64,000 nt of DNA from a virus. The stretch covers positions 30,110-94,109 of IMG/VR virus record IMGVR_UViG_3300037395_000062; one strand, written 5' to 3'. The translations under genes were made by a program, and so were the position numbers. Shown here piece by piece: positions 12,338 to 29,275 of the stretch. Position 1 is the stretch's first letter, and each line of letters starts with the position of its first letter. The notes below the pieces were generated by a model. That model worked only from the letters and a program-made list of their open reading frames with translations. It was not told the origin of the DNA and did not search any database.

Positions 12338-12367
12338 GTCGGTTTCGGTCCTTCTCTATCCGTTCCG

Positions 12368-14593
12368 TTACGCCGCCCGGCGCAGGATTTCCTGCACAGG
12401 AGGCGCGCAGTTGGCGATCGCCGATTTCACGGCCGTATCCGGTAGTGCCATACGGATCGACGCGAGCGCGTCGATCCCCTTGTCGCGCTCGGCCATGCTG
12501 ATCTGGCCGGACGAGGCCAGCGCGTTCATCTGCGCCTCGGGTGCCGCCGCCAAATCCACACTGGACTTGAACAGCTCGGTCACAGGTGGGCGACCGCCGT
12601 CCTGCGGGTTGCGCGACTGGCCGCCGACCATCCGCATGACCTGCTGCACGTCGGCCTGCATCAACGCGTAGCCACTGAGCGACTTCTCGAGCGCGGATGC
12701 GATCTTCGCCAGGTCGGCCTGGCTTGCCGGCGAGGGCTGCACGACGACGGTACCGCCGTCGGGAGCCGCGTTGCCGACGGACTCGCCGTGCGACGGCCAC
12801 TTGTCCTGGTTCTTCGCCTTGGTCTCCTTCAGCGCCTTGGCGACGGTACCGAGCGACTTCTCGATCTTCGTCATGCTGGGCCCGACGCGGCCGCCGCGCA
12901 GGGACTTCGCGATCGCGGCGTGCGACCGTGCCTTCGCCATGCGGCGGCTTGCCTTCTTGTGGTGCCGGCGTCCCGCCGCGTGGCGGCCGTCCTCCATGGC
13001 ATCCTCGGACTCCATGGCCGCGACCTTGGCCAGCTTGACCAATCCCTTGGCAAGCAGCCGCTCCAGTGCGGCGGCCTTCTTCATCGCCTTCTTCTGGTCG
13101 TCGTCGGATTCGGACTCGGCGTCGTCCTCCTCGTCGAGTTCGTTAACGATCTCGATGTCGGTGCCGGAACCGCCTTCGGTCTGCTCGGCCTCATCGTCCT
13201 CGTCGGCATCCTCGCCTTCGTCGTCCTCGCCGGATTCGGATTCCTTGTCCGCAGTGCTTTCGGATTCGCCGGCCTTCTTCGCCTTGGACACCGCACGCAC
13301 GACCTCCGGAATCGCCTTGGCGAGTGCCGAGGCCACGGCGGCCGGAAGCGCCTTGGCGATCTCGGCCTTCAGCACGGCGGGATCGAACGTAAGCGCCGTC
13401 GGCGAGGGCTGCGTCTCCAACGCCTGCACCCGGCTCTGCATCGCCTGACCGAACGCCACCAGCGACTTCATGGCGCGCGCCTGCGTCATCAGCTTGCGGC
13501 CGAGATCCTCGGTGACTGCCTGCACGCCGCTCTGCCGCGTCGGACGCGAATACTCGCGCTCCATCGGTTCGGCGCCATGGCCGGATGCGTCCTGCGGCTT
13601 GCCGACGCCGACCTTGCCAGCCGGAACGGAGGATTCGGGACCGCCTGCACGGGTCGTCTCCAGACGGTCGTCCGGCGGTCCGTCGAACAGGTCCTCGACC
13701 TGACGGATGCGATCGTGGTCGTCGCCTTCCTCCAGCAGTGTGGTCGCCTTGCCGAGTTCCATGGACGCTTCCAGGGAGGCTTCCTTGATCATGTCGACGC
13801 GTTCCGCCGGGGTCATGCGCCCGAGCAGGGTCCCGAACGCCTTGATAAGGTAGCCGGCGCCGCGCGGCGTGACGGCGGTCTGTGCGATGGTCATGAACTC
13901 TCCCGAGCCTCCGGTCTTGCAGGTGCCGCAACTATGCGTCGGCGTACAGGCGCAGCCCAATGCCGAAACGACGGACGATTTCCCGACCGGCGACTTCGTA
14001 TCGCCGGTACGCAGCCAATCGACGAAACCGTCGAAATCCATGCGCCTTACCGAACCGATACGCTCCACGCCGCGCCCGTCAGAGAACGCCGCGATATAGG
14101 TGCGTCCGGCCTGCGCGCCGTCGCTGAAGCCCAGCATGCACTTGTGCTCGTCGAAACCGCCGTCGTCGGCATCGACCTGGTCGATCACGTACACCGGACA
14201 CGTGTGGATACGATGAGCCTCGGGGCCGACATAGACATCGACATGGTCGCCGTCGGCACCCTCGGTGCGCTTCACGTACCCGTAATGCGCGGGCATGCGT
14301 ACCGACCACGGCGTGCCGTCCGGCGCCGTGCCGCTGCGCATGCGGTCCAGCGGCGTCTCGATGGTGACCTCCAGGCCGGGATATCGCGTATCCATCCCGC
14401 GGTCCCACGACCCCAGGATCGCGTGCGTCATCTGATAGTTACCGGCCGCCGCCTGTCCCGGCGACGGGTCCCAGTTGCGCCGGACGGCGCGGTCTAGGTC
14501 GCCCGGCGCGATTACCTCGATCGGATTGTCGCGGTGACCTACGTGCAGTGATCGGGCAGCAGACCGAACTTCCGCTTCGGTAATCAGCGTCAT
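12368..14593 (-). CDS. Inorganic pyrophosphatase (InPase) domain fused to a scaffold-like acidic/helical protein
   Basis: GLEVTIETP..RSG...WSVRMPAHYGYVKRTEGADGDHVDVYVG...DEHKCMLGF is the phage InPase domain. The C-terminal part is Ala/Lys-rich with an acidic tract. Start MTLITEAE at 14593. Confidence 0.8.
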   Translation of the reverse strand: MTLITEAEVRSAARSLHVGHRDNPIEVIAPGDLDRAVRRNWDPSPGQAAAGNYQMTHAILGSWDRGMDTRYPGLEVTIETPLDRMRSGTAPDGTPWSVRMPAHYGYVKRTEGADGDHVDVYVGPEAHRIHTCPVYVIDQVDADDGGFDEHKCMLGFSDGAQAGRTYIAAFSDGRGVERIGSVRRMDFDGFVDWLRTGDTKSPVGKSSVVSALGCACTPTHSCGTCKTGGSGEFMTIAQTAVTPRGAGYLIKAFGTLLGRMTPAERVDMIKEASLEASMELGKATTLLEEGDDHDRIRQVEDLFDGPPDDRLETTRAGGPESSVPAGKVGVGKPQDASGHGAEPMEREYSRPTRQSGVQAVTEDLGRKLMTQARAMKSLVAFGQAMQSRVQALETQPSPTALTFDPAVLKAEIAKALPAAVASALAKAIPEVVRAVSKAKKAGESESTADKESESGEDDEGEDADEDDEAEQTEGGSGTDIEIVNELDEEDDAESESDDDQKKAMKKAAALERLLAKGLVKLAKVAAMESEDAMEDGRHAAGRRHHKKASRRMAKARSHAAIAKSLRGGRVGPSMTKIEKSLGTVAKALKETKAKNQDKWPSHGESVGNAAPDGGTVVVQPSPASQADLAKIASALEKSLSGYALMQADVQQVMRMVGGQSRNPQDGGRPPVTELFKSSVDLAAAPEAQMNALASSGQISMAERDKGIDALASIRMALPDTAVKSAIANCAPPVQEILRRAA

Positions 14594-15465
14594 TTCAGCA
14601 CGCCATCCTTGTTCCGGCCGAACGCCCGGTCGAACGCCTTCTGCATGTTCCGCCGGTGCATCACGGCGTGCGCCGCTATATCGGCCAGCCCCGCCGGGTA
14701 TTTCGCGCATTTCTCGAAGTGGCCTCGGTATCCGGTCAGCGACGGGAAGTCCTGCACCCGGCAGCCGAGGCAGTCCGACGCCGCGTACACGTCGTCCATC
14801 GTCTGCGGGACCGCCAGCAGCGCCGACATCGGCGGCCCTTCGATCGACTTCGCCAGTTCGGCGATGTAGGCCTTGGCCGACACTATCCGCGCCTCGCCCT
14901 TCAGCGCCGTGTTCTTCGGCGTGCGGGTGAATGCAAGCGATCTCCAGTCGATCGCCTTGATCACGAACCGCTTCGCCGCGACGCCTGCGGCGCACTCGCC
15001 ACGCGTGCAGTCGTCGAGGTCGATCGGGAAACCGTATATCGAGGCGTACCACAGCACGGGCGGATCCCGCCGCAGGCTGGCCCAGAACGCATCAGCGTGG
15101 CTTCGCGCGGGATCGTCCGTGCCATCGGCCGATCGGCTGATCTCCCCCTCCACGTAGGTTCGCCCGCCGGATGCGGCACGCACATCGAGCGGCCGGCCGA
15201 CGATATAGGACTCCGGATCGCGGATCGGCGGGACCATCCTGTGTCCGAGTTCGGATTTGTGATCCATGTCCAGGTGACCCGTGGCGACGAACGAAGCCGC
15301 ACTTCCCAGGAGTGCCGCCTGAAGCACCACGTCCCCATCCAGATCCTGCTCCTCGGTGCTAGCCTCGCATTCAACAATTCTACGTCCGGACGCCTCCGGC
15401 GCACGCGCCTTCACGAGCACGGGAATGCGCGCGACGATCGCGCGATCAAGCAGGTCGAGGTCCAT
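14590..15465 (-). CDS. Prohead maturation protease
   Basis: EASTEEQDLDGDVV...DMDH...IVGRP...ASIYG...LAFTRTPKN herpes/HK97-fold protease motifs. Confidence 0.82.
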   Translation of the reverse strand: MDLDLLDRAIVARIPVLVKARAPEASGRRIVECEASTEEQDLDGDVVLQAALLGSAASFVATGHLDMDHKSELGHRMVPPIRDPESYIVGRPLDVRAASGGRTYVEGEISRSADGTDDPARSHADAFWASLRRDPPVLWYASIYGFPIDLDDCTRGECAAGVAAKRFVIKAIDWRSLAFTRTPKNTALKGEARIVSAKAYIAELAKSIEGPPMSALLAVPQTMDDVYAASDCLGCRVQDFPSLTGYRGHFEKCAKYPAGLADIAAHAVMHRRNMQKAFDRAFGRNKDGVLK

Positions 15466-15653
15466 ACGGAAAACGGTTGCAGGAAACGCTCGAAACCCCT
15501 ATGCAGTGCGAGTGCCCGCCGCGCTCACCCCGACGGCGAAGGATGTGAAAATATCGGGGAAGTGAACAACGCCGCTTGGCAAAGTGCCCTGTCGCTATGA
15601 AAGTGGACGCACCAGATTAGCGGCAGGGGGCGAGTCCCTCAAAGGATGCGGCC

Positions 15654-15839
15654 GTGCAAGAGAAAGCGATCGTCTACTACGTCGTGGCGATGTTGGGTTG
15701 CCTGCTGATCGACCTGATCGTCGTCGTGGCCCGTGGACCGATCATGATCGACCCGATCCTGAAGCTGCTGCTGGTCGCGGTCTGCCTTATCGCCGTCGTG
15801 ATCGGCCTGGCCCGCCACGGCTGGCTGCTGTCGGGCTAG
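15654..15839 (+). CDS. Small two-TM membrane protein
   Basis: 61 aa, two hydrophobic stretches, on the opposite strand to the operon. Confidence 0.5.
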   Translation: MQEKAIVYYVVAMLGCLLIDLIVVVARGPIMIDPILKLLLVAVCLIAVVIGLARHGWLLSG

Positions 15840-16477
15840 GCTACCTCCATCGACAGGCTGGCGCAGACCCCGCCGATCTGCGACGACATGCCGCCGTACG
15901 GCGCGTCGCTCTCCCCGTCGCAGGGCGCGAACACGATCCCGGACACGACCGGCGACAGCGCCTTCTCCGCGAGACCCAGGAACTCGTCCACAGGCCGGCG
16001 CCCCAATTCGTAGGCGCACCAGTCCACCGTATATTTCGGCTTGCGCATCTCGGATTCCAGCCACGCCATCACCAGGCCGCCGTGGCGCGAATGGAAATTC
16101 GCGTGGAACGACATCTCGATCAGGAGGTCGCGCACGTTGGACGCCGCCACGAAGTTCAACTGGATCCGCCCGACGAACCGGCAGCGCGCGCAGGCGCACA
16201 CGCTCCACTTGTGTCCAGCCGGGACGAACCGCATGGCGTCCGTCAACTCCTCGCGGCGGCTGCGCCATTCGGAGCAGGTACCGCAGCCGCAGATCGCGCG
16301 GTCGGACATCGGATAGTGCCGCAGTGCATCCACCACCGGCGCAGCTTCGCGGTCCGGCAGCGCCACCGAGGCGTAGACGCCGAGCATCGAATCGAGCGCC
16401 TCGATCAGTCCGTGCAGCCTCGCGCGTCTGTGTGCGAGAGCGCGTACGCGAGGATCAAGCGACTGGATGCTGTGCAT
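15836..16477 (-). CDS. Hypothetical protein with Cys clusters
   Basis: 213 aa with CGCGTC and CACARC motifs. Confidence 0.55.
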   Translation of the reverse strand: MHSIQSLDPRVRALAHRRARLHGLIEALDSMLGVYASVALPDREAAPVVDALRHYPMSDRAICGCGTCSEWRSRREELTDAMRFVPAGHKWSVCACARCRFVGRIQLNFVAASNVRDLLIEMSFHANFHSRHGGLVMAWLESEMRKPKYTVDWCAYELGRRPVDEFLGLAEKALSPVVSGIVFAPCDGESDAPYGGMSSQIGGVCASLSMEVA

Positions 16478-16931
16478 TCACGGCCTTCGCCCCGTTCATC
16501 GCGATCAGTTGGTAGCGGCGATCGACCGCCGACACGCGGCCCACGATGTCGCTGCGTCTCCCCAGCGCCATGCGCATATCCTCCTTGCTCTTGGGTGGCA
16601 GGTCAGGTGCGCGGCCGTTGAACTCCGTAGCGATGTCTCCGGAACTGAGCGGTCCCTTCTCGATCAGTATGGCGACGATGATGTCCGTCATGCGATCGGA
16701 CTTCGCCTTCGGCGCCCTGGAAGGTTGGGCCGCGAACCGCACGCGTTGCTCCGCCTTGACGGGAGCCGGCGTATCGTCGACCGGAAGCGTGAAGTAGTGG
16801 TCGAAGAAAGCGTCCAGCTTCTCCACCTCCTTCGCATGGTGCATGCGGTCCAGCGCGGCCCGCCGGATCCGCACGTCCGGAGATCCGGCTGCGATCTCGA
16901 TGGGGTCCCGTATCCTGTTCGCGTCAGCCAT
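16455..16931 (-). CDS. Hypothetical protein, possible C-terminal winged helix
   Basis: IIVAILIEKGPLSSGDIATEF looks like a wHTH; abuts the GT stop. Confidence 0.55.
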   Translation of the reverse strand: MADANRIRDPIEIAAGSPDVRIRRAALDRMHHAKEVEKLDAFFDHYFTLPVDDTPAPVKAEQRVRFAAQPSRAPKAKSDRMTDIIVAILIEKGPLSSGDIATEFNGRAPDLPPKSKEDMRMALGRRSDIVGRVSAVDRRYQLIAMNGAKAVNAQHPVA

Positions 16932-16932
16932 G

Positions 16933-19900
16933 TCAATCAGCCGCCTCCTTCACGGGTAGCAAAGCCTCGTAAGCCTCGCGCCAGGACCGCAGGTCGACGA
17001 CCCCGAACCGTTCCGTGACGCGGTTGCGTTCGGAGACGCCGTCGATGTCCCACGGCGTCATCGTGGTCCCGTCGATCGGATCCATCTCGACGTCGAGCCC
17101 GGTACGGTAAAGGCACCGCAGCGCCTCCGCCGGTGCCGCGGCCCCCTGCGACCCGACGAGCGAACGCAGCACGACCCGGTCGATGCCGAGACGTCCGAGG
17201 TCCAACGCCAACCGATCCGGATCCCGGATGTCCCACTCCTTGGCGTTCGCCGGAATCGGCGCGGTCAGCCGCAGCGCGAATCCACTCATGTCGGCCGCGA
17301 ACACGGTCTCGCCGCCGTGCGCCAACGCGACGGCGCGCCCGGCCGGTCCAGGCAAGTCGTTGATCGTCAGCACCCGGCGCGCATCGGCGGCGGGGCGGCG
17401 TTCGTTCCAGGACAGCAGTTCGCGATGCAGGCCCGATATCGCCATCCCGCCCTGGGCAAGGCCGATCGCCAGGTCGGGATGCCAGTATGGATCGGGATCC
17501 TTCCACCGTTCGGCGAACCGCGCGTTGTCCTTCCGCAGCCTGGCGAAGTCGGCCTGCGCGTTGGCCGGATCGGTGCGGCTGGTGCCCTCCGGGTGCAGCA
17601 GTTCCGCGGTCATCTCGACGACGTTGCGCAATCCGCGCCGGCGCAGGCGCAGGCAGAAATCGGTGTCGCCGTAGTTCATCGGGAAGGCCTCGGCATCAAA
17701 CCCGCCGACCGCGTCGAATTTCACCCTGGATACCAACATGCAGGCGCCGGTCACGGCCTGCGCCTCGTGCGTCAGCGCGGCGAGCCATCCGTTGCCGGGA
17801 TTGCCGTGCGCCATGCCCTTGAACAGGTGTCCGGCGATTCCCTGGTGGGCGACGACGCCGACGTGCTGGACGACGCCCGCCGGATGCACCAGCTTGGCGC
17901 CGACCGCACCCACATCGGGACGCACCGCATGGCCCATCATCGCATCCAGCCAATTCGCGGCACCGACGCACACGTCGTCGTTCAGGAACAGCAGGTAGCT
18001 TCCCAACGCATGGTTACGGACGACGTCGTTGCAGAGCCGCGACCAGTCGAATACGCCGTCCTGCGCCTCCCACCGTACAACCCTGACACGTGGATCGGCG
18101 AGTGCGTTTGAGCCAAGCTCCGGCTCGGACAGCGGACCGTTCTGCACCACGATGATCTCGTAGTTCGGATAGGCGGTATGCTGGCGCACGGTGTTGACGC
18201 AAGGCTGGATCAGCCTGCCTTTACCGAGCGTCGGCACGATGATCGAGACGAGAGGGTGATCTTCCGGAAACGCTCGATTCCGCACCACCGACAGCGTGCC
18301 AGGCAGCGTCGGATTCGCGGTCACCGCGACGCCTGCCGCATAGAAGGATTCGATCGCCATCTGCCGTGCCAAGGTATACATCGCCACGTCCTCGGGCTCC
18401 GGTTCCCGCACCGTGGCGACGGTCTTCGGCAGGTGCCTGATAACCTGTTGCGGATGGCCGAAATGTTCAGCGGCATGCAGAAGGAAACCATACAAGTCTA
18501 CCCTGCTGCTAACCTGAGTCAGGTATCGCGTACGCACGGCGCATACCGGCGTGACGTAGTCGCGTGCCAGGAACAATTCGAGGTCGAAGTCCGGCTTCAG
18601 ATCCGGATATACGCCGCCTTTGCCATCGCCGATATCGTTGTCGGCATAGATGGCGCAAACAACATCGTCGGCGTCCGCGCACGCGGCGATAAGCGTCGCA
18701 AACCCGTTTTGTTTCCACGTCACTGAACCGTCCGTGAAGACTACCCAGTTCGAATCGACCGATTCGATGCCGACTCCGAACTCGCGCATCGAAACGAATT
18801 CCCATTCCGTGGATCGCGTCTTCGGTTCCGGCAGGTCTCCCTTCAGCATCGCCCACGAAGCGTAGTCGTGCCCGAATCCGGCAGTGCCAGGCTGCGGTCC
18901 GGCCCACTGCAACCGCAGGAACGCCAGTTCGATATCGGAGCGCTCGCGTTCGGTCAGCATCTCGCCGGCGATGCCGTTCTGTCCTAGGTAGCCGCGAAGG
19001 TGCATCCGCTGCACGCCACCCTGGGTCGGCGGCATCGACGGCACCACCGAGGCCGCGTACGCATCGGCCGCCTGCATGTTGCGGAATCCGCGTGCCGCGG
19101 CCCGCAGGCCCCACTCCATGATGGACTGTTCCTCGTTGCCGCCGCAGCCGTCAACGTCCGGCCAGCCGATCGCGGCTAGCGCGCGCGCCGACAGCAAGCT
19201 ACACGGACCCAACGGGGTGCCGACGATGAGCCTGCGGCCCGGCATATCCGCGCGCACGGCTGCCGCCATCGCCGCCGCGGTATCGGCCGATATCTGCGTC
19301 CAGGTATCGAGTCGCGGGAAGGCGTTCGGTCCGTCGCTGGCGAGCGGGATCGCCGACGCCACGTCGTCGGTTTGCGAAATCGCCGATCGCATCGACCGCC
19401 AACTGTCGTCGTCGAGCGCGGTGCCTGGACGCAGCCATAACACGTCGGCACCCGTTGGCGCCGCGCGACGGCAGGCCTCGATCAGCGACGACTTGCGGGG
19501 CGCATTGCGTACGCAGCGTGGCATGTCGCCCGCATCCAGCGGAAGCGATACGACCACGTCCTCTTCGCGCTTTCCGGCCCTGCCCACCTTCCACCGGATA
19601 TCCGTCGCGCGGTTTCCCGGCAGCCAAGCATCGAGCCGCGCGTCGATTCGCTTCTCGAGCGTGTGGTTCTTGCGCACCCAGGCGAGCAGCGCATCCGCGT
19701 TGACCTGCCGTTCGATCGACGGTGCGGCCATGAACGCCCGTATGGCCGCGATCCAATCCTGCGCGGTCTCGGCGTAGGCGAACACCGGCGGATCGCCGTC
19801 GGTATAGGACGTCGCGCGCTGGGCGATAACGCAAGCGCCGACCATGCCCCCCTCGATCAGCCGCAGGTTCGACTTGCATTCGTTGAACCGGTTGGACTCC

Positions 19901-20616
19901 AGCGGCGCCAGCACCAGGTCGAGATCGAGTTGCAGCATCTTCAACTGGTACTCGTGCGCCGGCACGCCGGGATGGAATTCGGTGCGAACCGGTGGGTTCT
20001 TTGGTTGGGTCCCGAAGAACACCCACTCGACATCCTCGCCAATCGCCTCCATCGCAGGGCGGATCAACTCGAGATCGCCGTCGTGGGATATGCCGCCCAC
20101 GAAGCCAATGCGTAGCCGTCCTTCGGAGCGCATGACGCGCGGCCGCAGCGCCATCGCGGGAATCGCGTTCGCCACCGTCCGCACGTCGACGCAACCCAAC
20201 TCGTCGCGGAACCACGCAGCCAACGGTTCGGTGGACGTCGTCACCCGGTCGCACAGTTTCGCCGCCCTGGCGATTCTGGCGGGTATTCCCGGTGGCATGA
20301 AACCGCGATGAAAACTCGCTTCGGGGATCTCGCCCAGGAAGTCGTCGAGTTCGTAGACCAGCAGCGCGTCCGGCAGCGCCTCGCGGATCGCGGTCATAGC
20401 GGCGACGTGGTTGTCCTCCATGTAGCGCTGGAACACGACGACGTCGGGTGCCGCCGCCACGATCATCTCCAACGGCCACATCGCGATGTCGAGCCTGCCC
20501 TCCGCATGCCCGCCGACGACCATCGACATCAGCGGTACGGCCATGCGGTGATATCCGCAGCCCTGCCGATCGCCTGCGAATCCAAGCACGAAAGGCGGTC
20601 TTACTCTCTCCGTCAC
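16933..20616 (-). CDS. Multidomain glycosyltransferase (GT4-like + degenerate GT2 + GT2), flagellin-glycosyltransferase-like
   Basis: N-terminus GCGYHRM..QR..VYELDD..APLESNRFNECKSNLRLIE; C-terminus PLVSIIVPT..FLNDD..VGAVGAKL..AVTGAC..GGFD..DTDFCLR. Confidence 0.9.
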   Translation of the reverse strand: MTERVRPPFVLGFAGDRQGCGYHRMAVPLMSMVVGGHAEGRLDIAMWPLEMIVAAAPDVVVFQRYMEDNHVAAMTAIREALPDALLVYELDDFLGEIPEASFHRGFMPPGIPARIARAAKLCDRVTTSTEPLAAWFRDELGCVDVRTVANAIPAMALRPRVMRSEGRLRIGFVGGISHDGDLELIRPAMEAIGEDVEWVFFGTQPKNPPVRTEFHPGVPAHEYQLKMLQLDLDLVLAPLESNRFNECKSNLRLIEGGMVGACVIAQRATSYTDGDPPVFAYAETAQDWIAAIRAFMAAPSIERQVNADALLAWVRKNHTLEKRIDARLDAWLPGNRATDIRWKVGRAGKREEDVVVSLPLDAGDMPRCVRNAPRKSSLIEACRRAAPTGADVLWLRPGTALDDDSWRSMRSAISQTDDVASAIPLASDGPNAFPRLDTWTQISADTAAAMAAAVRADMPGRRLIVGTPLGPCSLLSARALAAIGWPDVDGCGGNEEQSIMEWGLRAAARGFRNMQAADAYAASVVPSMPPTQGGVQRMHLRGYLGQNGIAGEMLTERERSDIELAFLRLQWAGPQPGTAGFGHDYASWAMLKGDLPEPKTRSTEWEFVSMREFGVGIESVDSNWVVFTDGSVTWKQNGFATLIAACADADDVVCAIYADNDIGDGKGGVYPDLKPDFDLELFLARDYVTPVCAVRTRYLTQVSSRVDLYGFLLHAAEHFGHPQQVIRHLPKTVATVREPEPEDVAMYTLARQMAIESFYAAGVAVTANPTLPGTLSVVRNRAFPEDHPLVSIIVPTLGKGRLIQPCVNTVRQHTAYPNYEIIVVQNGPLSEPELGSNALADPRVRVVRWEAQDGVFDWSRLCNDVVRNHALGSYLLFLNDDVCVGAANWLDAMMGHAVRPDVGAVGAKLVHPAGVVQHVGVVAHQGIAGHLFKGMAHGNPGNGWLAALTHEAQAVTGACMLVSRVKFDAVGGFDAEAFPMNYGDTDFCLRLRRRGLRNVVEMTAELLHPEGTSRTDPANAQADFARLRKDNARFAERWKDPDPYWHPDLAIGLAQGGMAISGLHRELLSWNERRPAADARRVLTINDLPGPAGRAVALAHGGETVFAADMSGFALRLTAPIPANAKEWDIRDPDRLALDLGRLGIDRVVLRSLVGSQGAAAPAEALRCLYRTGLDVEMDPIDGTTMTPWDIDGVSERNRVTERFGVVDLRSWREAYEALLPVKEAAD

Positions 20617-20957
20617 GCGAATTTCTCCCTGTACTTGACACCGAACTCCGCGACCGTATCGCGCACGACATCACCGAACATATCGCGCGGGATGCCGGAA
20701 TCCTTCTGGTAGCGCCACGTATCGTCGGTGACCTTGGCGGACGCCGACACCTGCGACAATGCGAATCCACCTTCAACCGCCACCCATGCGAAGTTCGGCC
20801 GTTGCGCCTTCGTCGCCGGGTCGTAGGCCCGGTCACACCGCGCGCAGAACAGTTGCGGCGAGCGCCTGTATTCGATCGGCTTTCGGCCGCAGCAGCGGCC
20901 ATCCGCGTCAAGCGTATGCGGCGGGTGCACCGCGAGAAGGGTCGCCTGGTCGATCAA
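20613..20957 (-). CDS. Hypothetical protein
   Basis: 114 aa, CCGRKP and CARC motifs, 4-bp overlaps on both sides. Confidence 0.6.
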   Translation of the reverse strand: MIDQATLLAVHPPHTLDADGRCCGRKPIEYRRSPQLFCARCDRAYDPATKAQRPNFAWVAVEGGFALSQVSASAKVTDDTWRYQKDSGIPRDMFGDVVRDTVAEFGVKYREKFA

Positions 20958-21442
20958 CCGGACGGTTCCATCCGCTTCAACCCGATCCTCGCCAGTTCAT
21001 CGTCGGAGACGAAGGCGAGCATGTTCGCCGCGAACTGCCGCGCCATCTCCGGCTGCATGGTGCGGAACGACCAGTCGATCGGCAGCAGCAGCAGATAGGC
21101 GTCCGGGTTCGCGGCGGATATCCTGTCCCGCAACGTCTTCACCGCCCGCATGTAATCCAGCGCCTCCGCCATGTCAGGCGGCTTCACCACCACAAAGGCG
21201 AGCCCACCGGCCGGGATCGAGGACACCTCCGTTATCGCTCCGGCCAGCGGATCGCCGATCGACAGCCGGCCCGCGCCTGCGATCACGGTGCCGCCCGTCA
21301 CGCCATGCCCGATCAGGACTTCCGACATGCGTTCGACCGTTTCCGCGACGGATATGAACCAGGGTTCGCCCTGCAGTTTCCGCATCTCCGGATCGAACTG
21401 CTCGATCGCGTCCTTGTCTCCGTCACCGTCGAAACAGGTCAT
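20954..21442 (-). CDS. Hypothetical protein
   Basis: 162 aa with ATGA overlaps. Confidence 0.6.
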   Translation of the reverse strand: MTCFDGDGDKDAIEQFDPEMRKLQGEPWFISVAETVERMSEVLIGHGVTGGTVIAGAGRLSIGDPLAGAITEVSSIPAGGLAFVVVKPPDMAEALDYMRAVKTLRDRISAANPDAYLLLLPIDWSFRTMQPEMARQFAANMLAFVSDDELARIGLKRMEPSG

Positions 21443-23181
21443 ACCGAAGCCTCCGCGCTCGCGGCCTCGGACGCCGAATCACGGCGAACGCCAGAACGAT
21501 GCCCGTGCGCCTGGGATTCCGCGGGGTCGGTCTTGCTCGGAAACGGCGCGCCAACCTTATCCGTATCCTTCGCCGAACCGCCTTCCGTCCCGCCGGTCTC
21601 GGCCGCGTGCATGAGTTCGAGCTGTTTCGTCGCCAGGGTTTGATACACGCCAGCCTTCGCTGGATCCTCCGGACACAACTCCATCAACTCCATAAGAGTC
21701 TTGTACTTCTTCGAAACGCCCTTGGTCAGCGCCGGTTGGTCCACCGCCGTGCGGCTTTCGCGCCACGTGCGCGCAAGCTTGCGCGCCTCGTACTCGCGCG
21801 CGTCCTGCTTCGGCGAAGCGCCGTTGAACCACAGCCGCAGTCGAGGCCAGTTCGGTGCGATCAAATAGTCGTTCATCCGGCTGGCGACGAAGCCGAGCAG
21901 CGGCGGCAGTCCAGGATCGTCGACCCCTGCGGTCTCTGTCGATTCGTTCGGAAGCGGGGCGTTGTCCTTGTGGTTGCCCGAGACGAACAGCCCGAGCCGG
22001 CGGGCGGGGAACTGGCTGATCGCCATGTACAGCCCGCCCATCAGATTCATGTGGTCCTTGTAGCGGAGGTCCTGCCCCTTCATATCCATGAAGTCGAGCA
22101 CGTCGACGTCCCCTTTTTCAGGAACGGACATCACGGGCAGACCCCATACCTTCGACTGCCCGCGCTTCATGTTGGTCCACTCGCGCATCAGCGCATCGAT
22201 CTGGGTCTGGTTCCAGAAGTCGCCCTTCAGCAGCAGCATGCCGTTCGGAATCGAGTTCCTGGTAAACGAATCTGCATTGAGATCGATCCCGCTCTGGAAC
22301 GCCTGGATCATCCGCACGCCGATCTCCAGTTCGGTGAACCCGTAACCCCATGCGGACGGATCAGTGCGTGGATTGCGGATGGCGAAGAACAGCTCGTCGC
22401 GGGTGAACGGCCGCACGGGGTTTCCCGTGTCGTCCACCATGGCGCAGAAGTACCGCGGGTCGTTGGCATAGCCCTTGCCTGGGATCGCGAGCCGAATGTT
22501 GCCCGCCGGCAGGTTGGCGAACGCCTTCACGTTGCCCAACCTAGTCATATCGGTCCAGACGGCCCAGCCGTCGTACGTGAAGGTATCGTCGACGAAGGTG
22601 CGCAGGAAGATGTCGAGGGGGTGCAGGTTGTGTGCGTCGCGTTCGCGGGCGTCGGAATAGCTGGATTCGCGGTTGCAGTTCCAGACGAAGCGCTGCGCGT
22701 CGCGGATGTCCTTCCTGTCCTGCTCGGTCGGTGTCTCGTCGCGGTCGCGCAGGCCGATCTCCCAGCCGGGCTCCCAGATCTGGTTCGACAGGCCAGAGTA
22801 GCGCGCGAGGTCGGCGACCCGGGAGCGGATGACGAGTTGGGGGACGATGTTCTCGCGCCGGATCTTCTGCAGGCTCTCGGGTGCGATCCCCGGCCACGGC
22901 AGCAGCCCCGCGTTGGCGGGATCCGGCATGAAACTCATGGTGGCGTACGAATAGGCCTGCGGCGGCACGCCGAGCGACTTCACCACCTCGGTGAGCGCGC
23001 CTTCCATATGCCGTGCCACGTCGCCGATGCTCGCGTGCAGGGCGTCGAGATAGGTCCTGGTGTTCAGCACGTGCACCGCGTATTCGGGGTTCGGCGTCGG
23101 CAACCTGGCGCCTTCGATATGGTCCGGCAGCAATGCGTTGATGTCGAACGGCCCGGACGGTGGTGCGGTGAGGGTCAGCAT
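21439..23181 (-). CDS. Portal protein
   Basis: FLRTFVDDTFTYD...FTRDELFFAIRNPRTD..GYGFTELE..F..NSIPNGML is typical of Herelleviridae-like portals. Confidence 0.88.
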   Translation of the reverse strand: MLTLTAPPSGPFDINALLPDHIEGARLPTPNPEYAVHVLNTRTYLDALHASIGDVARHMEGALTEVVKSLGVPPQAYSYATMSFMPDPANAGLLPWPGIAPESLQKIRRENIVPQLVIRSRVADLARYSGLSNQIWEPGWEIGLRDRDETPTEQDRKDIRDAQRFVWNCNRESSYSDARERDAHNLHPLDIFLRTFVDDTFTYDGWAVWTDMTRLGNVKAFANLPAGNIRLAIPGKGYANDPRYFCAMVDDTGNPVRPFTRDELFFAIRNPRTDPSAWGYGFTELEIGVRMIQAFQSGIDLNADSFTRNSIPNGMLLLKGDFWNQTQIDALMREWTNMKRGQSKVWGLPVMSVPEKGDVDVLDFMDMKGQDLRYKDHMNLMGGLYMAISQFPARRLGLFVSGNHKDNAPLPNESTETAGVDDPGLPPLLGFVASRMNDYLIAPNWPRLRLWFNGASPKQDAREYEARKLARTWRESRTAVDQPALTKGVSKKYKTLMELMELCPEDPAKAGVYQTLATKQLELMHAAETGGTEGGSAKDTDKVGAPFPSKTDPAESQAHGHRSGVRRDSASEAASAEASV

Positions 23182-23325
23182 GGCGCTACCATCGCTAGAG
23201 CGACCATTGTAGATACAATCCAACGGCTAGAAAAATGGCGAATATAACTACGCCAACCGTAAGACCACCTAAGATTCCCCGAAGGAAGTTTCCATTGCCC
23301 GCATGGTGTTTGCGCCGTGGAACCA

Positions 23326-24015
23326 TCAGCATCCGATCATGTCCTCCAGCCTGCCGTAGCGTTTCTCGACCTCTGCGACGAAGCGTTCGGCATCGGAGAA
23401 GGCGGCCTTTACCTGATCGTCGCTCCGCGATTCCGCGTTAGCGAACAGCAGCGCGGCCATGGCAACAACCGCGATATCCCGCGGTTTAGGTTCAGGCATC
23501 AGAGTTGCCTCTGTTTGCGGTATCAGCGCTGGTTGTTCCAGCTTTTGACGTCCGCCTCCATGGCAACCCGCAGACCCTGCTTGGTCAACGATTGCCATCC
23601 GTTCGTACGGAAGGCCAATCCCTTGTCGACCAATTCGTCGCGTCCAGACTTCGCTATCAGGTTGCCGTCCCAGACTGGCCCCGTGACGAAGAACTGCATC
23701 ATCACTTCCTTGGCCGCACCCGACAACCCATCGAACACAGCCTGGATCGAATGCAACAGTATCGCGGTTGGAATCACGGCACGTACCGTTTCGTGCCTCC
23801 ATTAAGTTTGAGAGCCAGTCACCCTCGAACCATGTTGTTGCGCCATCCTTACGTCGCTTTATGTCAATCTGGCTGCGAGGATGAAGCTCACCCAGCAAGT
23901 CCCTGCCGTCAACATGCGAAAATGTCTGCGTAACCATCTCGTCAAATCGACGCGCTTTTTCTTCCTGGGATAGCTCCAGGAACGATTCGGCGCTCAGTTT
24001 CTGGATGTCATACAC
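23326..24015 (-). CDS. Cluster of short hypothetical ORFs (229-aa frame with internal ATG at 23499, plus overlapping 84-aa ORF 23523..23777)
   Basis: Gene boundaries are ambiguous; probably 2-3 small genes. Confidence 0.4.
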   Translation of the reverse strand: MYDIQKLSAESFLELSQEEKARRFDEMVTQTFSHVDGRDLLGELHPRSQIDIKRRKDGATTWFEGDWLSNLMEARNGTCRDSNRDTVAFDPGCVRWVVGCGQGSDDAVLRHGASLGRQPDSEVWTRRIGRQGIGLPYERMAIVDQAGSAGCHGGGRQKLEQPALIPQTEATLMPEPKPRDIAVVAMAALLFANAESRSDDQVKAAFSDAERFVAEVEKRYGRLEDMIGC

Positions 24016-25141
24016 AAACCGTCTCCTTGACGAAATACGCCTTGCCCTGCGCGGTCAGTTCGATCCGGCCGCCCAGCGCGTCGTCGACCGCCTTGCGCAC
24101 CCCCGCGGTAGCGTCGTAGTCGTCGAACAGCATGGTTCCGCCCTCGACGAGAAGCGGCATGAAGCGCTCGATCACCGCCGCCGCGCAGCGATACTGGTCG
24201 CAGTCGACATGCACGAAGGCGACCGGCCCGAAGGATTCCGGCATCGTCGCAGGGAACACCCCGGCATGGTATTCCGCATCCGGCACTGCCGTGCGGACGG
24301 CGTCGAGCGAGACATCGGCGAAATCGCCGATACCGTGAACGTCATCCTCGACATCACGCTCCGGAATACCCTCGAACGTATCGAACAGGTGCAGCCTGCA
24401 GCCGCGCGTCTTCGCCAACCTGGACAAATGCCAGGCCGTGCCGCCCTTGTAGACACCCACCTCGACGAAGTCACCTTTCGGCGCGGACTTCGCAAGCCGC
24501 AGCAGCGTAGCGAGGGTGTCCGCGCCGAGCAGCGTCGGCGGCGCCACATCCAATGGCGTCATCACCGCATACCCCTCGTGCCGGTAGTCGAAACTCACGG
24601 CATGCGTGGCGCCCAGGATATCGGCGAAGAACCCGGCGTCGCGCCGGCGCGGCAGCAGATGCCGGATCCCGGCCGGGGCGTTGCCGTGCCCGAAGGCGCC
24701 GTCGAGCCAAATGCGCAGGTCGTCGGCGATCACTACATCGCGACAGCCGCGCAGCCCGGAGAGGATCGAAAGTTCGCGGCTCAACGGCAGGCGCCGCGCC
24801 GGATCGGTCTCCGCGCCGTAGCCCTTCAACCCGTAGTCGGCACCGGGGAAGTGCGCGTCGAGCCAGAACAGGATCGGCTCCTCCCGCGGGATCAGGTCGC
24901 AGACCACCGAGAGGAACGTCTCGCTGTCCACGCGATGCACGGTTATCCTGGAATCCGATTCGAACGCCTTCGACGCGGCATCGGCCAGCGACGGCTCCAC
25001 CTCGCAGGAGCACAGCGTGCGGAACATGAACCGCGCGGCATGGGCAAGCGACTCGCCGCGACCGGTGCCGGTCTCGACAAAGTGCAGCAGACCGTACTTC
25101 GCGATCAGCGCGCCGAGGTCGAATTGGGTCAGGCTACCCAC
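24008..25141 (-). CDS. Double methyltransferase: SAM-MTase-like domain + TylF/MycF sugar O-methyltransferase
   Basis: N-terminus FVETGTGRG..FWLDAHF..ADD; C-terminus GDFVEVGVYKGG..LFDTFEG..HVDCDQY..GGTMLFDDY. Confidence 0.85.
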   Translation of the reverse strand: MGSLTQFDLGALIAKYGLLHFVETGTGRGESLAHAARFMFRTLCSCEVEPSLADAASKAFESDSRITVHRVDSETFLSVVCDLIPREEPILFWLDAHFPGADYGLKGYGAETDPARRLPLSRELSILSGLRGCRDVVIADDLRIWLDGAFGHGNAPAGIRHLLPRRRDAGFFADILGATHAVSFDYRHEGYAVMTPLDVAPPTLLGADTLATLLRLAKSAPKGDFVEVGVYKGGTAWHLSRLAKTRGCRLHLFDTFEGIPERDVEDDVHGIGDFADVSLDAVRTAVPDAEYHAGVFPATMPESFGPVAFVHVDCDQYRCAAAVIERFMPLLVEGGTMLFDDYDATAGVRKAVDDALGGRIELTAQGKAYFVKETVCV

Positions 25142-25787
25142 CTATACGGCCCCAAAACGCGTCCAGATGCACCGCAAGCAGTTCCCGGATCGTTTCCTCG
25201 GGAAGTGCTGCAATCACGTCCATCCAGGACTTGCAGTCCTTCCAGTTCTCATTGACGCCAAGGTCGACGATTTTCGCTTTTCGCATCGCAACATACGCCG
25301 CCGAAAAATCGCCGTCCGGATCAGACGACCTGTCGATAGCCTTGAAAAGCTTGGCTTGACTAGCCGGAAGATACGCCATAGTACGCCCAAACAGCGGCGT
25401 CGCCGCACGTGTCTCCGGGCAATCCCCCCATTGCGCGGAGACGACGTACTCGACAACCGACAAGCATGGCGACGCCAAGTCACGCGGCATCGAATGCAAG
25501 TTGATGTCAAGGTCGAGCAGCGGTAACGTACCGTCCTCTGCGGGCGGCGGGATATCCGGAGATTCGACGATAACCTCGAAATACGGTGCGTCATGCATGT
25601 CGCACGGAATCGACGAAGGTGCCTGAAAACCGATGATGCGAGTCATGCGAGGCAGCGCAGTCAACCCCTGCTCGAACAGCGTTCGCATCACCCGAATGCG
25701 GCCGCGTCGACGGTCCGCGACGAGCCCATATCGCTCCTCGTCCTGGATACGTTGACGTTCGCTCCATCCAGTCATGTCGGTCGGCAT
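25134..25787 (-). CDS. Hypothetical protein
   Basis: 217 aa with an RBS, overlapping the next gene. Confidence 0.55.
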   Translation of the reverse strand: MPTDMTGWSERQRIQDEERYGLVADRRRGRIRVMRTLFEQGLTALPRMTRIIGFQAPSSIPCDMHDAPYFEVIVESPDIPPPAEDGTLPLLDLDINLHSMPRDLASPCLSVVEYVVSAQWGDCPETRAATPLFGRTMAYLPASQAKLFKAIDRSSDPDGDFSAAYVAMRKAKIVDLGVNENWKDCKSWMDVIAALPEETIRELLAVHLDAFWGRIGG

Positions 25788-25805
25788 CGCGGCTACACCC
25801 CTTGT

Positions 25806-25958
25806 TCAGGTTATCGCTGAAGGACAGGCTTCGCGCAACTCTCGTCGCCGCTCGTCTTCGACAAGCATGTCCTCACGCATGAGCCGTTCGGCCTTCGCCG
25901 CGTCGGCCTCGGACGGCGTACCCGTCAGCCACCGCCGCATCGCTTCCAGCCACGCCAT
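25806..25958 (-). CDS. Small hypothetical protein (MAWLEAMRRWL...)
   Basis: 50 aa, GGAGGAGG RBS; translated by hand. Confidence 0.5.
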   Translation of the reverse strand: MAWLEAMRRWLTGTPSEADAAKAERLMREDMLVEDERRRELREACPSAIT

Positions 25959-26039
25959 CGCCGTACGCCTCCTCCGTGCTCACGCGGACGCTAGCAATGC
26001 CGTAAATTCCATGCAAGCCTAGAATATTCACGGTACGCG

Positions 26040-27968
26040 TCAGTTCGTCCCGACGGACGCTCCCCAGCGGGTCCAATCGGCGCAGCCGTCCATCGCCGAT
26101 ACGATCCTGCCGTGTTTCTCGCAACGTTCGGCATTGTCCCTGACCGCGTAGCTGCCGCAAGGTGCCCCGCACATGCCCTCGAACGGCGAGACGACCATCC
26201 CGGGGTTCGTCACCTGCTCGGCGATCCCGCGGAACGCATCCATCGTCGCCTGGTTCGGGTTCTCCTGTCCGAACGGCACGGCCGGCGCCAAGTGCTCCGT
26301 GCCGGACACGCCGGGGACGTAAGCCACCTGCCGCGAACGGACGATCGCACGGGTCACCAGATGCACCAGCGTGTCGAACTCGTCGGCCGCGCGCGAGCCG
26401 CCGGTGAACGCGGTCACCCGTTCCATGAACCCGACCTGGGTATCGCCGTGCGGACCGTGAAGCCACGGAGCGCCCTGCGGCACGAGTATCCGGCCCATGC
26501 GCGCCCAGCCCTGCACGCTGGCGGCCCCGCCGGGAATCGGAAGACCGCCGCCCTTCTGCACCATCACGGGATTGACCGCGCGCTCGAGCTTGCCCTGCTC
26601 CACCTTCTGCCCGACGATCGGGATCTGCGTGCCGCGGAAGGTCTGCAGCAGGCTGACACCCGATTGCTTCTCCTCGACGATGACCCGCCGCGGATGCCAC
26701 ACGCCATGCCGGGTCCGCAGCGCCATGGCCAGGCCGCGGAAGTCGAGGTCCCGGACCATCAGATCGAGCAGCCATACGTCGTAGTGGAAGTCGCACTCGC
26801 CCACCAGATCGGAATCCTCGCCGCGGTGCCACGACCGGCACGGCACCATCAGCCCGGTCAGCGCGGCGGTCAGGCTGGTGGACTGCGGCTGCCCGAGCGC
26901 CGTATCCCACGCCTCCTCGATCTCGGCGTTCGGAAACGACGCGACCCAGGAACGGATCGCCGGTGACTGGATGCCATCGGACATGTCGGCGGGCGGGGCG
27001 TAGACCCTGAAGTCGCCCTCGTTAAACACGCCTTCCCCGCCGCCGGTCATGTCGCCGTCGTAGTTGACCGCCGCGACGCGAGGCTGCCGGCGCTTGATCG
27101 TCAGGTACTCGCGGCGCTTGGACGGGCTGCCGGGCCAGTAGAACCCGGCGCCGGTCGTATCGATCGCCGCGTAGTAGGCGCGGTACCTGACGTAAGGCGA
27201 GCGCGGATCCTGCACCGGATCCGGCTCCAGTGTCTCGGTGTAGACGCATTCAAGGCCGTGCGGCACCAGCACGTCGTACCAGAGCCGCCGCTGTCCAGGA
27301 CGGGTCGCCGGCAGTTCCAGCACCACCCAGTCGCCGTTTTTCTTCCATTCCTGGTATAGATCGTCCTCCGCCCACCAGCGGCCGGCCGCGATGGTGCGGC
27401 AGCCACGCGGGTCCGCGCGTCCCATGATGGTGTCGTAGTAGGTCTGCTTGACCTGTGCCCTGCTTTCCGGGGTCGAGGCGTTCTCGCGGTCGTGCAGATC
27501 GTCGAGGATGCGCAGGCGGCAGTGCAGCCCGGTCAACGCCTTGCTGGACACGCCCACGGCCTTGTACGACGCGTCGGGATCGGACGGCGCGTGCCCGGTG
27601 ACGAACAGCCCGCGCTGGATGCTCCACCCCTGGTCGGGATCGGGACGCACTGCCGGAAACAGCTCGTGGAAACCCTTGTCGTGCTGCACGATCTGCATGA
27701 CGGTGGACATGAAGCCCTGCGGTAGCGCCTCGCCAGCGGAGATCGCCAACGTGGTCAGCGTCGGGTCGTGACCAAGTTCCCAACTTGCGTAGACCGTGCT
27801 CAGCAGGGTCGACTTGCCCGTGCCAGGCCCGGCAAGATACAGCAGGTTCTCGATCCTGCCGTCCTCCAGCCCAGCTACCAGAGGGTAGTGGTGCGGTGCC
27901 AAGCTAAAGCCGCGCGCCTTGAACAGCATCGAATAGTAGGCGGCCAGGCCGATCCTGCGTTCAGACAT
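26040..27968 (-). CDS. terL: Terminase large subunit
   Basis: Walker A GPGTGKST, LTGLHC..ILDD, GRWWAEDDL, nuclease AWDTA..VEEKQSG..DEFDTL. Confidence 0.9.
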   Translation of the reverse strand: MSERRIGLAAYYSMLFKARGFSLAPHHYPLVAGLEDGRIENLLYLAGPGTGKSTLLSTVYASWELGHDPTLTTLAISAGEALPQGFMSTVMQIVQHDKGFHELFPAVRPDPDQGWSIQRGLFVTGHAPSDPDASYKAVGVSSKALTGLHCRLRILDDLHDRENASTPESRAQVKQTYYDTIMGRADPRGCRTIAAGRWWAEDDLYQEWKKNGDWVVLELPATRPGQRRLWYDVLVPHGLECVYTETLEPDPVQDPRSPYVRYRAYYAAIDTTGAGFYWPGSPSKRREYLTIKRRQPRVAAVNYDGDMTGGGEGVFNEGDFRVYAPPADMSDGIQSPAIRSWVASFPNAEIEEAWDTALGQPQSTSLTAALTGLMVPCRSWHRGEDSDLVGECDFHYDVWLLDLMVRDLDFRGLAMALRTRHGVWHPRRVIVEEKQSGVSLLQTFRGTQIPIVGQKVEQGKLERAVNPVMVQKGGGLPIPGGAASVQGWARMGRILVPQGAPWLHGPHGDTQVGFMERVTAFTGGSRAADEFDTLVHLVTRAIVRSRQVAYVPGVSGTEHLAPAVPFGQENPNQATMDAFRGIAEQVTNPGMVVSPFEGMCGAPCGSYAVRDNAERCEKHGRIVSAMDGCADWTRWGASVGTN

Positions 27969-28158
27969 GCTTCTCCCGCCAATAATCCACCGGCGTGAAA
28001 CTCCACCCCTTACCGGTCGCGTAAGTGTGCAACCGTTCCGGCGTCCAGCCTATTGAATAGCCCAGGATAGGTGCCGTACGGCAGATGATACCGTCGGTTG
28101 CTACGACGCCTGCGTTAAAATGCGGCGCATCGACCTCGTAAAGCGCCTTAACCGTCAC
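27961..28158 (-). CDS. Hypothetical phage protein
   Basis: 65 aa APHFNAGVV...APILGY. Confidence 0.6.
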   Translation of the reverse strand: MTVKALYEVDAPHFNAGVVATDGIICRTAPILGYSIGWTPERLHTYATGKGWSFTPVDYWREKHV

Positions 28159-29029: not shown

Positions 29030-29050
29030 TCAACCTCCTCCGTCCCGCCG
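28370..29050. repeat. 22-bp perfect direct repeat flanking the mom-like gene
   Basis: CTCAACCTCCTCCGTCCCGCCG at 28370-28391 and 29029-29050. Confidence 0.95.
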
Positions 29051-29274
29051 ATCGAGCATACCGAAGGACGCGAGCAGAAGCCACACCGCGCACACCTCGG
29101 TAGCGGATAGGCCCAGGATGACCAGCGCGAACGTCACGATCACGGGCCTGGCACCGTCAGGCTCAACGCCCAGAACAGTCCCAGAAGCCCGGCGATCAGC
29201 ACGACGACGGCGCCGATCGGGCGGCCGAACGCCCAGGCGACGAGGAAGAACAGGATGAAAACGGCGATTCCCAT
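29030..29274 (-). CDS. Two small hydrophobic ORFs (29140..29274, 44 aa; 29030..29143, 37 aa)
   Basis: Hand translation gives MGIAVFILFFLVAW... and VIVTFALVILGL..., joined by a GTGA overlap. Confidence 0.5.
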
Positions 29275-29275
29275 G

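Follow-up and report, generated by a model that had tools for sequence, protein, structure and literature searches.

A large glycosyltransferase related to flagellin-island enzymes in the head operon of an uncultured tailed phage: a candidate for late O-glycosylation of virion proteins

Introduction

To our knowledge, mycobacteriophages and giant algal viruses are the only viruses for which glycosylation of virions by virus-encoded enzymes has been demonstrated; in mycobacteriophages it affects antibody recognition. Here, we describe a candidate system of a different enzyme lineage, one that is related to flagellin glycosylation and fixed in the head module of a large environmental phage clade. 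Its core is a glycosyltransferase (GT) of 1227 amino acids, hereafter the large GT, encoded in a 64,000-nucleotide stretch of DNA (the window, to which all positions below refer) that comprises bases 30110–94109 of the 94,109 bp IMG/VR virus record IMGVR_UViG_3300037395_000062. The record is 100% complete and linear according to CheckV, has a G+C content of 63% and represents an uncultured tailed phage. An earlier note on this DNA had proposed that the large GT and a neighbouring methyltransferase build a methyl-capped glycan on virion proteins, and knew of no such case for a proteobacterial myovirus. This agrees with the literature, in which we found no described case of virion glycosylation for a phage of Gram-negative bacteria.

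In the fgt1/fgt2 flagellin glycosylation island, Fgt1 places rhamnose on six serines and the resulting glycan contains O-methylated sugars (PMC3927599). In the mycobacteriophages Che8, Corndog and Myrna, soluble phage GTs encoded next to structural genes are believed to modify subunits of the capsid and tail (Freeman et al. 2023, as summarized in PMC12363180). The large GT gene is likewise adjacent to and co-oriented with structural genes, whereas its glycans are predicted, its host is probably Gram-negative and one giant fused enzyme, in a fixed slot between portal and protease, is accompanied by methyltransferases. In the chlorovirus PBCV-1, A064R (two rhamnosyltransferase domains and a 2-O-methyltransferase) together with A061L (a 3-O-methyltransferase) gives the capsid protein a glycan whose terminal rhamnose carries two O-methyl groups (PMC9614988). 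Like the phage set, this pair combines a cytoplasmic multi-domain transferase with a second methyltransferase activity, and the tandem methyltransferase of the phage would offer the same two-step logic. Unlike the phage set, it comes from a giant virus of eukaryotes, its glycan is N-linked and its sequences are taken to be unrelated; the likeness is one of functional analogy, and as such appears to be the closest for a GT with two methyltransferase activities.

We give somewhat better than an even chance to the explanation that the large GT carries out late O-glycosylation of virion proteins, placing a host-derived, probably rhamnose-type, methylated glycan on a putative acceptor. If this is true, virion glycosylation extends to phages of (probably) Gram-negative hosts, the genes form a testable set of one core enzyme and exchangeable tailoring enzymes, and protein O-glycosylation gains a new scaffold in the large GT. 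Glycan coats could then bear on how stable and immunogenic the phage is, how it adsorbs and how host defences recognize it. If the stand-alone relatives of the enzyme that many smaller phages encode beside terminase and head genes act likewise, sugar-coated virions would be common and no peculiarity of actinobacteriophages. The window itself adds a tandem rhamnose-type O-methyltransferase, a GT9 enzyme with four cysteines, a pattern of co-occurrence and a negative result for the capsid insert.

Results and discussion

Domain organization of the large glycosyltransferase

The start codon of the large GT is a GTG within a 4-nt GTGA overlap with the upstream open reading frame (ORF), and a GGGAGA ribosome-binding site is present. 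About 60 full-length homologues with 30–67% identity were found, nearly all of them metagenomic and many from contigs of ~100 kb, and the protein is conserved over its entire length (alignment A1). Its regions are the following.

19618–20595, minus strand: GT-B domain, amino acids 8–333 (phrog_7162; motifs GCGYHR, YELDD and FNECKSNL)
18817–19596, minus strand: conserved region, amino acids 341–600 (no Pfam or PHROG match)
18262–18756, minus strand: accessory block, amino acids 621–785, ahead of the GT2 domain as in Fgt1/Fgt2-type enzymes (Fgt1-type homology)
17404–18255, minus strand: GT2 (GT-A) catalytic domain, amino acids 788–1071, with LNDD at amino acids 878–881 (PF00535, PF13641)
16936–17379, minus strand: C-terminal domain, amino acids 1080–1227 (conserved in A1; its own hidden Markov model detects it in relatives)

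Amino acids 16–322 match phrog_7162 (E = 1e-29), and the three motifs of the GT-B domain lie at amino acids 19–24, 88–92 and 244–251, respectively. AlphaFold predicts a GT-B/GT4-like fold for this domain, similar to BshA, MshA and PglA, with a predicted local distance difference test (pLDDT) score of 94. A fold search with the domain returned generic GT-B/GT4 enzymes and no protein-specific GT, and a sequence search of the PDB gave matches limited to the GT2 domain. The latter matches Pfam PF00535 over amino acids 788–1005 (E = 4e-10), and its profile matches include chondroitin synthase, GalT1 and SpsA. Residues D91, D92, H178, K248 and S249 are invariant in a diverse alignment of N-terminal domains (A2), as are D880 and D984 in A1, and the catalytic positions of the enzyme appear from these alignments to be under purifying selection.

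The ORFs, coordinates, motifs and family assignments of the earlier note were all recovered as described, and its term 'triple-domain GT' holds in part: two catalytic domains (GT-B and GT2) and an accessory block homologous to Fgt1 are present, and a third catalytic domain is not recognizable. In profile comparisons with the GT2 domain, none of amino acids 340–600, 601–785 (the profile slice with the accessory block) and 1061–1227 (the slice with the C-terminal domain) gave a significant match, and the same was true of the pairs 340–600 versus 601–785, 1061–1227 versus 340–600 and 1061–1227 versus the N-terminal domain. Amino acids 340–600 are therefore not called a third GT domain, and this candidate was dropped. 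Two shorter relatives (L173 and L176) have a recognizable GT2 domain at the place equivalent to amino acids 341–600. The C-terminal domain (amino acids 1080–1227) has no match in Pfam or PHROG and no counterpart in the Fgt1-type proteins compared.

The two conserved regions that lack an enzymatic assignment (amino acids 340–600 and 1080–1227), together with the fixed place of the gene among assembly genes, could speak for a protein that is mainly structural or morphogenetic, a scaffold-like assembly factor in which catalysis is secondary. We regard this as highly improbable: in both GT domains, the residues of the nucleotide-sugar and catalytic types do not vary among sequences down to 28% identity, and tailoring enzymes co-occur with the gene.

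Relationship to flagellin-island glycosyltransferases

The large GT matches a 1192-residue GT from a flagellar gene cluster of Pseudomonas cichorii in two separate blocks. In BLASTP, amino acids 8–333 align with amino acids 866–1191 of that protein (36% identity, E = 3e-52) and amino acids 621–1071 align with its amino acids 406–858 (26% identity, E = 6e-35); the latter segment also matches the neighbouring 970-residue GT (24% identity, E = 8e-30). The domain order differs: the phage protein has its GT-B domain at the N-terminus, whereas in the P. cichorii protein this domain comes last (Pfam Glyco_trans_1_2 at 1096–1175). The phage enzyme also ends in an additional domain and has no equivalent of the first GT2 domain found in its P. 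cichorii counterpart. The genes of P. cichorii run in the order FlgK, a 530-residue ORF in the flgL position, the 1192-residue GT, the 970-residue GT and a FabH-like gene; a flagellin-like ORF lies ~4.5 kb downstream of the 1192-residue GT and ~1.3 kb past the FabH-like gene. This layout is that given for the fgt1/fgt2 flagellin glycosyltransferases (PMC3927599).

Fgt1 and Fgt2 are found in the Pseudomonas syringae group, and their kin lie beside flagellin in Stutzerimonas, Chitinimonas, Dyella and Stellaceae. Like the phage enzyme, they are soluble multi-domain proteins of ~1200 residues with a homologous GT-B domain that carries the FNxCKSNLR motif and a homologous accessory-plus-GT2 block. 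They differ in having the order GT2 ... GT2 ... GT-B, with GT-B last and not first as in the phage, and in lying beside flagellin or flagellar genes, whereas the phage gene lies in a head operon. A motif scan with A1 over one cellular genome per species gave at least 596 loci, 80 of which were fetched for their neighbourhoods; flagellin was present within 8 kb at 67 of these 80, mostly directly downstream. In a quick maximum-likelihood tree the N-terminal domains of the large phage GTs cluster with those of the cellular flagellin islands, and a branch with 98% support in the Shimodaira–Hasegawa-like approximate likelihood-ratio test (SH-aLRT) separates them from stand-alone phage GTs.

The kinship with flagellin-island GTs in swapped order, which the earlier note had proposed from motifs, is thus borne out by the two BLASTP blocks and the gene neighbourhoods as well as by the phylogeny that had been suggested as a check. 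These comparisons indicate that the large GT and the Fgt1-type flagellin O-glycosyltransferases derive from a common stock and are related by permutation, having the same modules in different order; the tree gives no direction of transfer. No flagellin-like ORF was found in the whole 94-kb phage genome at E <= 10, and the acceptor would therefore be different from that of Fgt1 or host-derived.

Position and conservation in the late operon

The minus strand from ~28000 down to 1900 forms a single co-oriented late block, with the following genes.

26040–27968, minus strand: large terminase (phrog_38, E = 6e-46), with which the late operon begins
25134–25787, minus strand: ORF of 217 amino acids
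24008–25141, minus strand: tandem methyltransferase ORF, 377 amino acids (PF05711 match)
21439–23223, minus strand: portal (phrog_15361, E = 1e-19; syntenic in relatives), the upstream border of the GT slot
20613–21442, minus strand: two small ORFs of 162 and 114 amino acids, joining portal to GT through 4-nt overlaps
16933–20616, minus strand: large GT, 1227 amino acids, the core gene of the system
15836–16931, minus strand: two ORFs of 158 and 213 amino acids between GT and protease
14590–15465, minus strand: prohead protease (weak phrog_1028 match), the downstream border of the GT slot
12368–14593, minus strand: InPase-domain protein, 741 amino acids (PF18823, E = 4e-39), between protease and capsid
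10412–12337, minus strand: major capsid protein, 641 amino acids (phrog_752, E = 2e-30), a candidate acceptor
2436–4232, minus strand: sheath
1895–2425, minus strand: tube

Overlaps of 4 nt chain the portal gene, the two small ORFs (g20954 and g20613) and the large GT; the methyltransferase ORF overlaps each neighbour by 8 nt, and the ATG of the InPase-domain protein overlaps the stop codon of the protease. No sigma-70-like promoter was found in 12000–29500, where terminator-like hairpins are not above the shuffled expectation. The earlier description of the GT and methyltransferase genes as co-oriented late genes coupled by overlaps is in line with these data. The small ORFs g20954 and g20613 and the 158- and 213-residue ORFs downstream of the GT have no Pfam or PHROG family match; g20954 is kept in L001–L003, and the 213-residue ORF, with nine cysteines, is conserved throughout the clade. 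The identity of the prohead protease is 36–69% across all relatives. A further ORF at 23326–24015 (minus strand) was dropped as a gene, its GC3 being low and no homologue being present in relatives.

All loci retrieved with the GT as seed have terminase, portal, GT, protease and capsid in this order. A search of IMG/VR seeded with the capsid protein gave 19 loci when the capsid alignment (A3) was used as the query, and only near relatives when a single capsid protein was used. A GT with the same N-terminal domain lies between portal and protease in 18 of the 19, at capsid identities as low as ~45%, and takes the form of fused proteins of 950–1350 residues. The remaining locus (L177) comes from a fragment that is 52% complete and has a differently arranged upstream region. 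Because it occupies this slot in 18 of 19 phages found independently of it through their capsids, the large GT belongs to the conserved core of the clade's head module.

This fixed place bears on the possibility that the large GT builds a glycan not linked to protein, on a lipid carrier or as part of host lipopolysaccharide (LPS), capsule or exopolysaccharide, to block superinfection or sticking to debris, with the methyltransferases as chain terminators. A multi-domain GT combined with a methyltransferase is the architecture of polymerizing O-antigen enzymes, and chain termination by methylation is the model for ABC-transporter-dependent O-antigen synthesis. Beyond the clade, the GT2 block is matched best by large multi-domain proteins annotated as 'O-antigen biosynthesis' or 'rhamnan synthesis F', many of them fused to methyltransferases, and the phage depends on host sugar nucleotides. 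However, the relatives that match in both blocks are enzymes of flagellin islands and not of O-antigen clusters. Transmembrane or export components are lacking, and no transmembrane segment was predicted in the large GT, the methyltransferase ORF or the GT9 protein. A gene for surface conversion would moreover be expected to be sporadic and early or lysogenic, and not to keep one place in the head operon throughout 18 of 19 relatives. We consider a glycan of this kind decidedly unlikely.

The same slot could instead hold an enzyme that is packaged in the head, or that acts on host proteins such as flagellin or a receptor rather than on the virion. The post-portal position often holds minor head or ejected proteins, the PHROG relatives of the 741-residue InPase-domain protein in the same operon include a 'minor head protein' and a 'DarB-like antirestriction' protein, and the cellular relatives of the GT act on flagellin. 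From its domain and its relatives, the InPase-domain protein is itself probably packaged cargo of the 'polyvalent' type. Against such a role for the GT, searches of its sequence for domains of a MuF-like or other capsid-targeting kind were negative, fusion to a head protein is seen in none of its ~60 homologues, and modification of host flagellin late in the lytic cycle would have no evident benefit. In our judgement packaging or a host target is very unlikely, and O-glycosylation of the virion's own proteins is preferred.

Directly downstream of the capsid gene, a lower-G+C patch contains a GIY-YIG/NUMOD3 homing-endonuclease gene (9145–10263, minus strand; PF01541, E = 3e-10).

Methyltransferase and GT9 enzymes

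The methyltransferase ORF is predicted to form two class-I methyltransferase folds (pLDDT 94). Amino acids 220–354 match TylF (PF05711) with 53.3 bits at a cut-off of 23, and the ORF has sequence matches to MycF, NovP and CalS11. The structures nearest to the model of the C-terminal half (amino acids 198–377) are CalS11 (Z = 20.8), a TDP-rhamnose 3'-O-methyltransferase, SpnH (Z = 19.1), a rhamnosyl 4'-O-methyltransferase, and MeT1 (Z = 17.4), which acts on methylmannose polysaccharide; generic catechol-type O-methyltransferases score below these sugar enzymes, at Z ~16. The model thus points to a sugar O-methyltransferase of the TylF/CalS11 type, as had been proposed. An HVDCDQY sequence at amino acids 311–317 is a candidate for the metal-binding aspartate motif of the DxDxY type. 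TylF, MycF, NovP, CalS11 and SpnH share the Pfam TylF match with the phage C-terminal half and include its closest structures; they tailor the deoxysugars of antibiotics, whereas the phage domain is fused to a second methyltransferase and lies in a late operon.

The N-terminal half (amino acids 1–198; 24548–25141, minus strand) matches 3ntv (Z = 14.7), with generic O- and RNA methyltransferases at Z ~13–15. It represents a widespread stand-alone family of ~207 residues without a Pfam model, members of which occur elsewhere as fusions with Methyltransf_11/23/25, with TylF and, in one case, with a GT1 domain. In relatives of the phage the N- and C-terminal halves are separate genes.

The right arm of the genome, on the plus strand, is the replication module (ribonucleotide reductase, SNF2 helicase, DUF2800, single-stranded DNA-binding protein, ThyX and DNA polymerase A), and is followed by a further glycosyltransferase gene.

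62639–63487, plus strand: GT9-family glycosyltransferase, 282 amino acids (PF01075, 25.8 bits, cut-off 22), after the DNA polymerase gene

An orthologue of this protein scores 52.9 bits, and the family profile (A5) matches the structures 3tov and 1psw with E ~1e-10 and TibC with E = 1.6e-3. The assignment to GT9, which the earlier note had made, is weak from the single sequence and firm from the family profile. The GT9 heptosyltransferases WaaC and WaaF share the profile match; the 282-residue phage protein is much shorter than these and nearer to the WaaF type than to TibC. Four cysteines past the C-lobe (C241, C244, C257 and C264) are invariant in the phage family. They recall the four-cysteine iron finger of the autotransporter heptosyltransferase TibC (Cys339, 342, 358 and 370; PMC4358343), although the profile alignment ends before that region. 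The N-terminal β-barrel of ~97 residues of TibC/AAH is lacking in the phage protein, in which the GT9 N-lobe motif starts at once and is aligned to WaaF residue 2.

A GT9 gene is present in four of five related genomes (G001–G004), each of which also has at least one methyltransferase half. The fifth (G005), which is complete and terminally repeated, keeps the large GT and lacks both GT9 and the methyltransferase halves. In two loci (L007 and L013) the GT9 gene is a direct neighbour of methyltransferase genes, between two pieces of the terminase gene. The GT9 gene is thus linked to the GT/methyltransferase set, adjoining methyltransferase genes beside or inside the terminase gene in relatives. 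The methyltransferases and the GT9 enzyme are variable accessories and not part of the conserved core.

The terminase gene, a single ORF in the window, is in two pieces (amino acids ~7–247 and 255–640, with the break at ~247–275) in L007 (128–7786), L008 (5216–7796), L011 (3242–8175) and L013 (2275–6962), and also in L014, L173 and L175. The gap of 0.9–6 kb between the pieces holds a GT9-like gene, joined in L007 and L013 by the methyltransferase, usually on the opposite strand and in L011 on the same strand. In L001, L006 and L014 the first ~53 amino acids of the terminase are also separate. A split gene, an intron and a mobile cassette are candidate explanations.

Sugar donors and the DNA alternative

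No genes for sugar-nucleotide synthesis (epimerase/dehydratase, nucleotidyltransferase) were found in the complete genome, and the sugar donors would therefore come from the host. A rhamnose-type sugar is favoured because Fgt1 transfers rhamnose and because rhamnose or mannose is the substrate of the methyltransferases nearest in structure.

The phage also carries three DNA methyltransferases, including a C5 enzyme, and its GT9 gene follows that of the DNA polymerase. Both facts are compatible with glycosylation of phage DNA bases as a defence against restriction, and so is the DNA methyltransferase that adjoins one stand-alone relative of the N-terminal domain (L073). Phage GTs are classically DNA-modifying enzymes (PMC12619734). 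However, neither a ThyA-type hydroxymethylase nor a TET/JBP dioxygenase was found in the complete genome, ThyX being present, and an evident hydroxymethyl-pyrimidine acceptor in DNA is therefore lacking. The large GT lies in the late head operon and not in the replication module, and its specific relatives are protein glycosyltransferases. DNA as the target seems barely credible on this evidence. In the middle of the window lie a DUF6745 protein, two N6/N4 DNA methyltransferases and one C5 DNA methyltransferase (43473–44723, plus strand; 46520–49119, minus strand; 41413–41715, minus strand).

Proposed reaction sequence and candidate acceptors

O-Glycosylation of virion proteins, within the host cytoplasm and at a late stage of infection, is favoured because the specific relatives of the large GT are cytoplasmic enzymes that O-glycosylate a self-assembling surface protein once it is folded and ahead of its export, its gene is co-transcribed with the phage's own self-assembling surface proteins, the enzyme is soluble, its catalytic positions are under purifying selection, sugar O-methyltransferases accompany it and other obvious targets are absent. 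Starting from what was observed, namely the homology, the folds, the fixed place in the head module, the solubility of the enzyme and the lack of other obvious targets, we infer the acceptor, the sugars, the order of the steps and the benefit as follows. The 1227-residue enzyme would be made from the long late transcript common to portal, protease and capsid, and, like its flagellin-island kin, would attach the first sugar, through Ser/Thr hydroxyls, to a protein that is folded and exposed at the surface. The GT-B domain may perform this first transfer, as Fgt1 suggests by analogy, and the GT2 domain may lengthen the chain. The donor sugars would be supplied by the host, a deoxyhexose of the rhamnose type being the best guess. 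In this phage and most of its relatives, the accessory set could then act: GT9 would add a further sugar, and the two methyltransferase domains would O-methylate sugar hydroxyls. The outcome would be a glycan coat over head and/or tail subunits with altered surface chemistry, which may provide shielding, stability or reduced sticking.

Three stretches are weak candidates for acceptor sites on the basis of composition: a P/T-rich linker of the capsid protein (NGTTPTTTVNPTPPSG, amino acids 429–444; 11006–11053) ahead of its insertion domain, the A/S/T/G-rich C-terminal tail of the tube protein and a P/S/T-rich stretch of g8479. The linker is specific to the clade in the capsid alignment, unlike the insertion domain. 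The earlier idea that a serine/threonine-rich capsid insert is tied to the GT did not survive the comparison: the insertion domain has an aligned counterpart in the capsid of Pseudomonas phage Dolphis, which has no such GT, and was rejected as a GT-specific acceptor. In Dolphis the slot between portal and protease is filled by gp6, which is unrelated to the GT.

Several points weigh against O-glycosylation of the virion, beginning with this presence of the insertion domain in a phage that lacks the GT. Flagellin-type glycosylation offers no sequon by which an acceptor could be searched for. The head operon also holds a probable packaged cargo, the 741-residue InPase-domain protein, and location in this slot does not by itself imply an action on the virion. 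The same GT-B family occurs in phAPEC8-like coliphages in a row of four GT genes between those for endolysin and primase/helicase, so that the fold alone implies no protein target. There is no specific kinship to the glycosyltransferases of Che8: BLASTP of gp108–gp110 against the large GT gave no match below E = 0.06, and the single generic GT2 profile match was that of gp109 (E = 4e-6). The clade has no cultured member, and megablast and tblastn searches of 50,697 phage records returned generic GT2 matches only and no cultured close relative.

A stronger form of the proposal would make glycosylation a built-in morphogenetic step of the whole clade of 90–110-kb phages of Gram-negative hosts, with the GT docked by its unique C-terminal domain during assembly and a methylated deoxyhexose glycan on capsid or tail needed for stability or survival. 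We regard this extension as unlikely.

Related glycosyltransferase loci in other phages

Many small uncultured phages encode stand-alone GTs of the N-terminal-domain family next to terminase and methyltransferase genes. In ~40 near-identical loci (represented by L024, 8303–12183), such a GT is found between a methyltransferase and the large terminase. In L073 (7372–10984) it forms one protein with a class-I methyltransferase, and its gene has a GtrB-like GT2 and the DNA methyltransferase as flanking neighbours. The Escherichia phage phAPEC8 row (L187, 4705–7852) includes at least one GT of the same GT-B family, tblastn giving two matches within this record; more than 100 records of related coliphages contain the row. 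In the annotation of the Streptomyces phage KimJongPhill (L186, 1199–5975), a nucleotide-sugar epimerase, a methyltransferase, a GT of the same GT-B family and RNase E are followed by terminase, portal and capsid; this cassette looks like a compact candidate virion-glycosylation set in a cultured actinophage.

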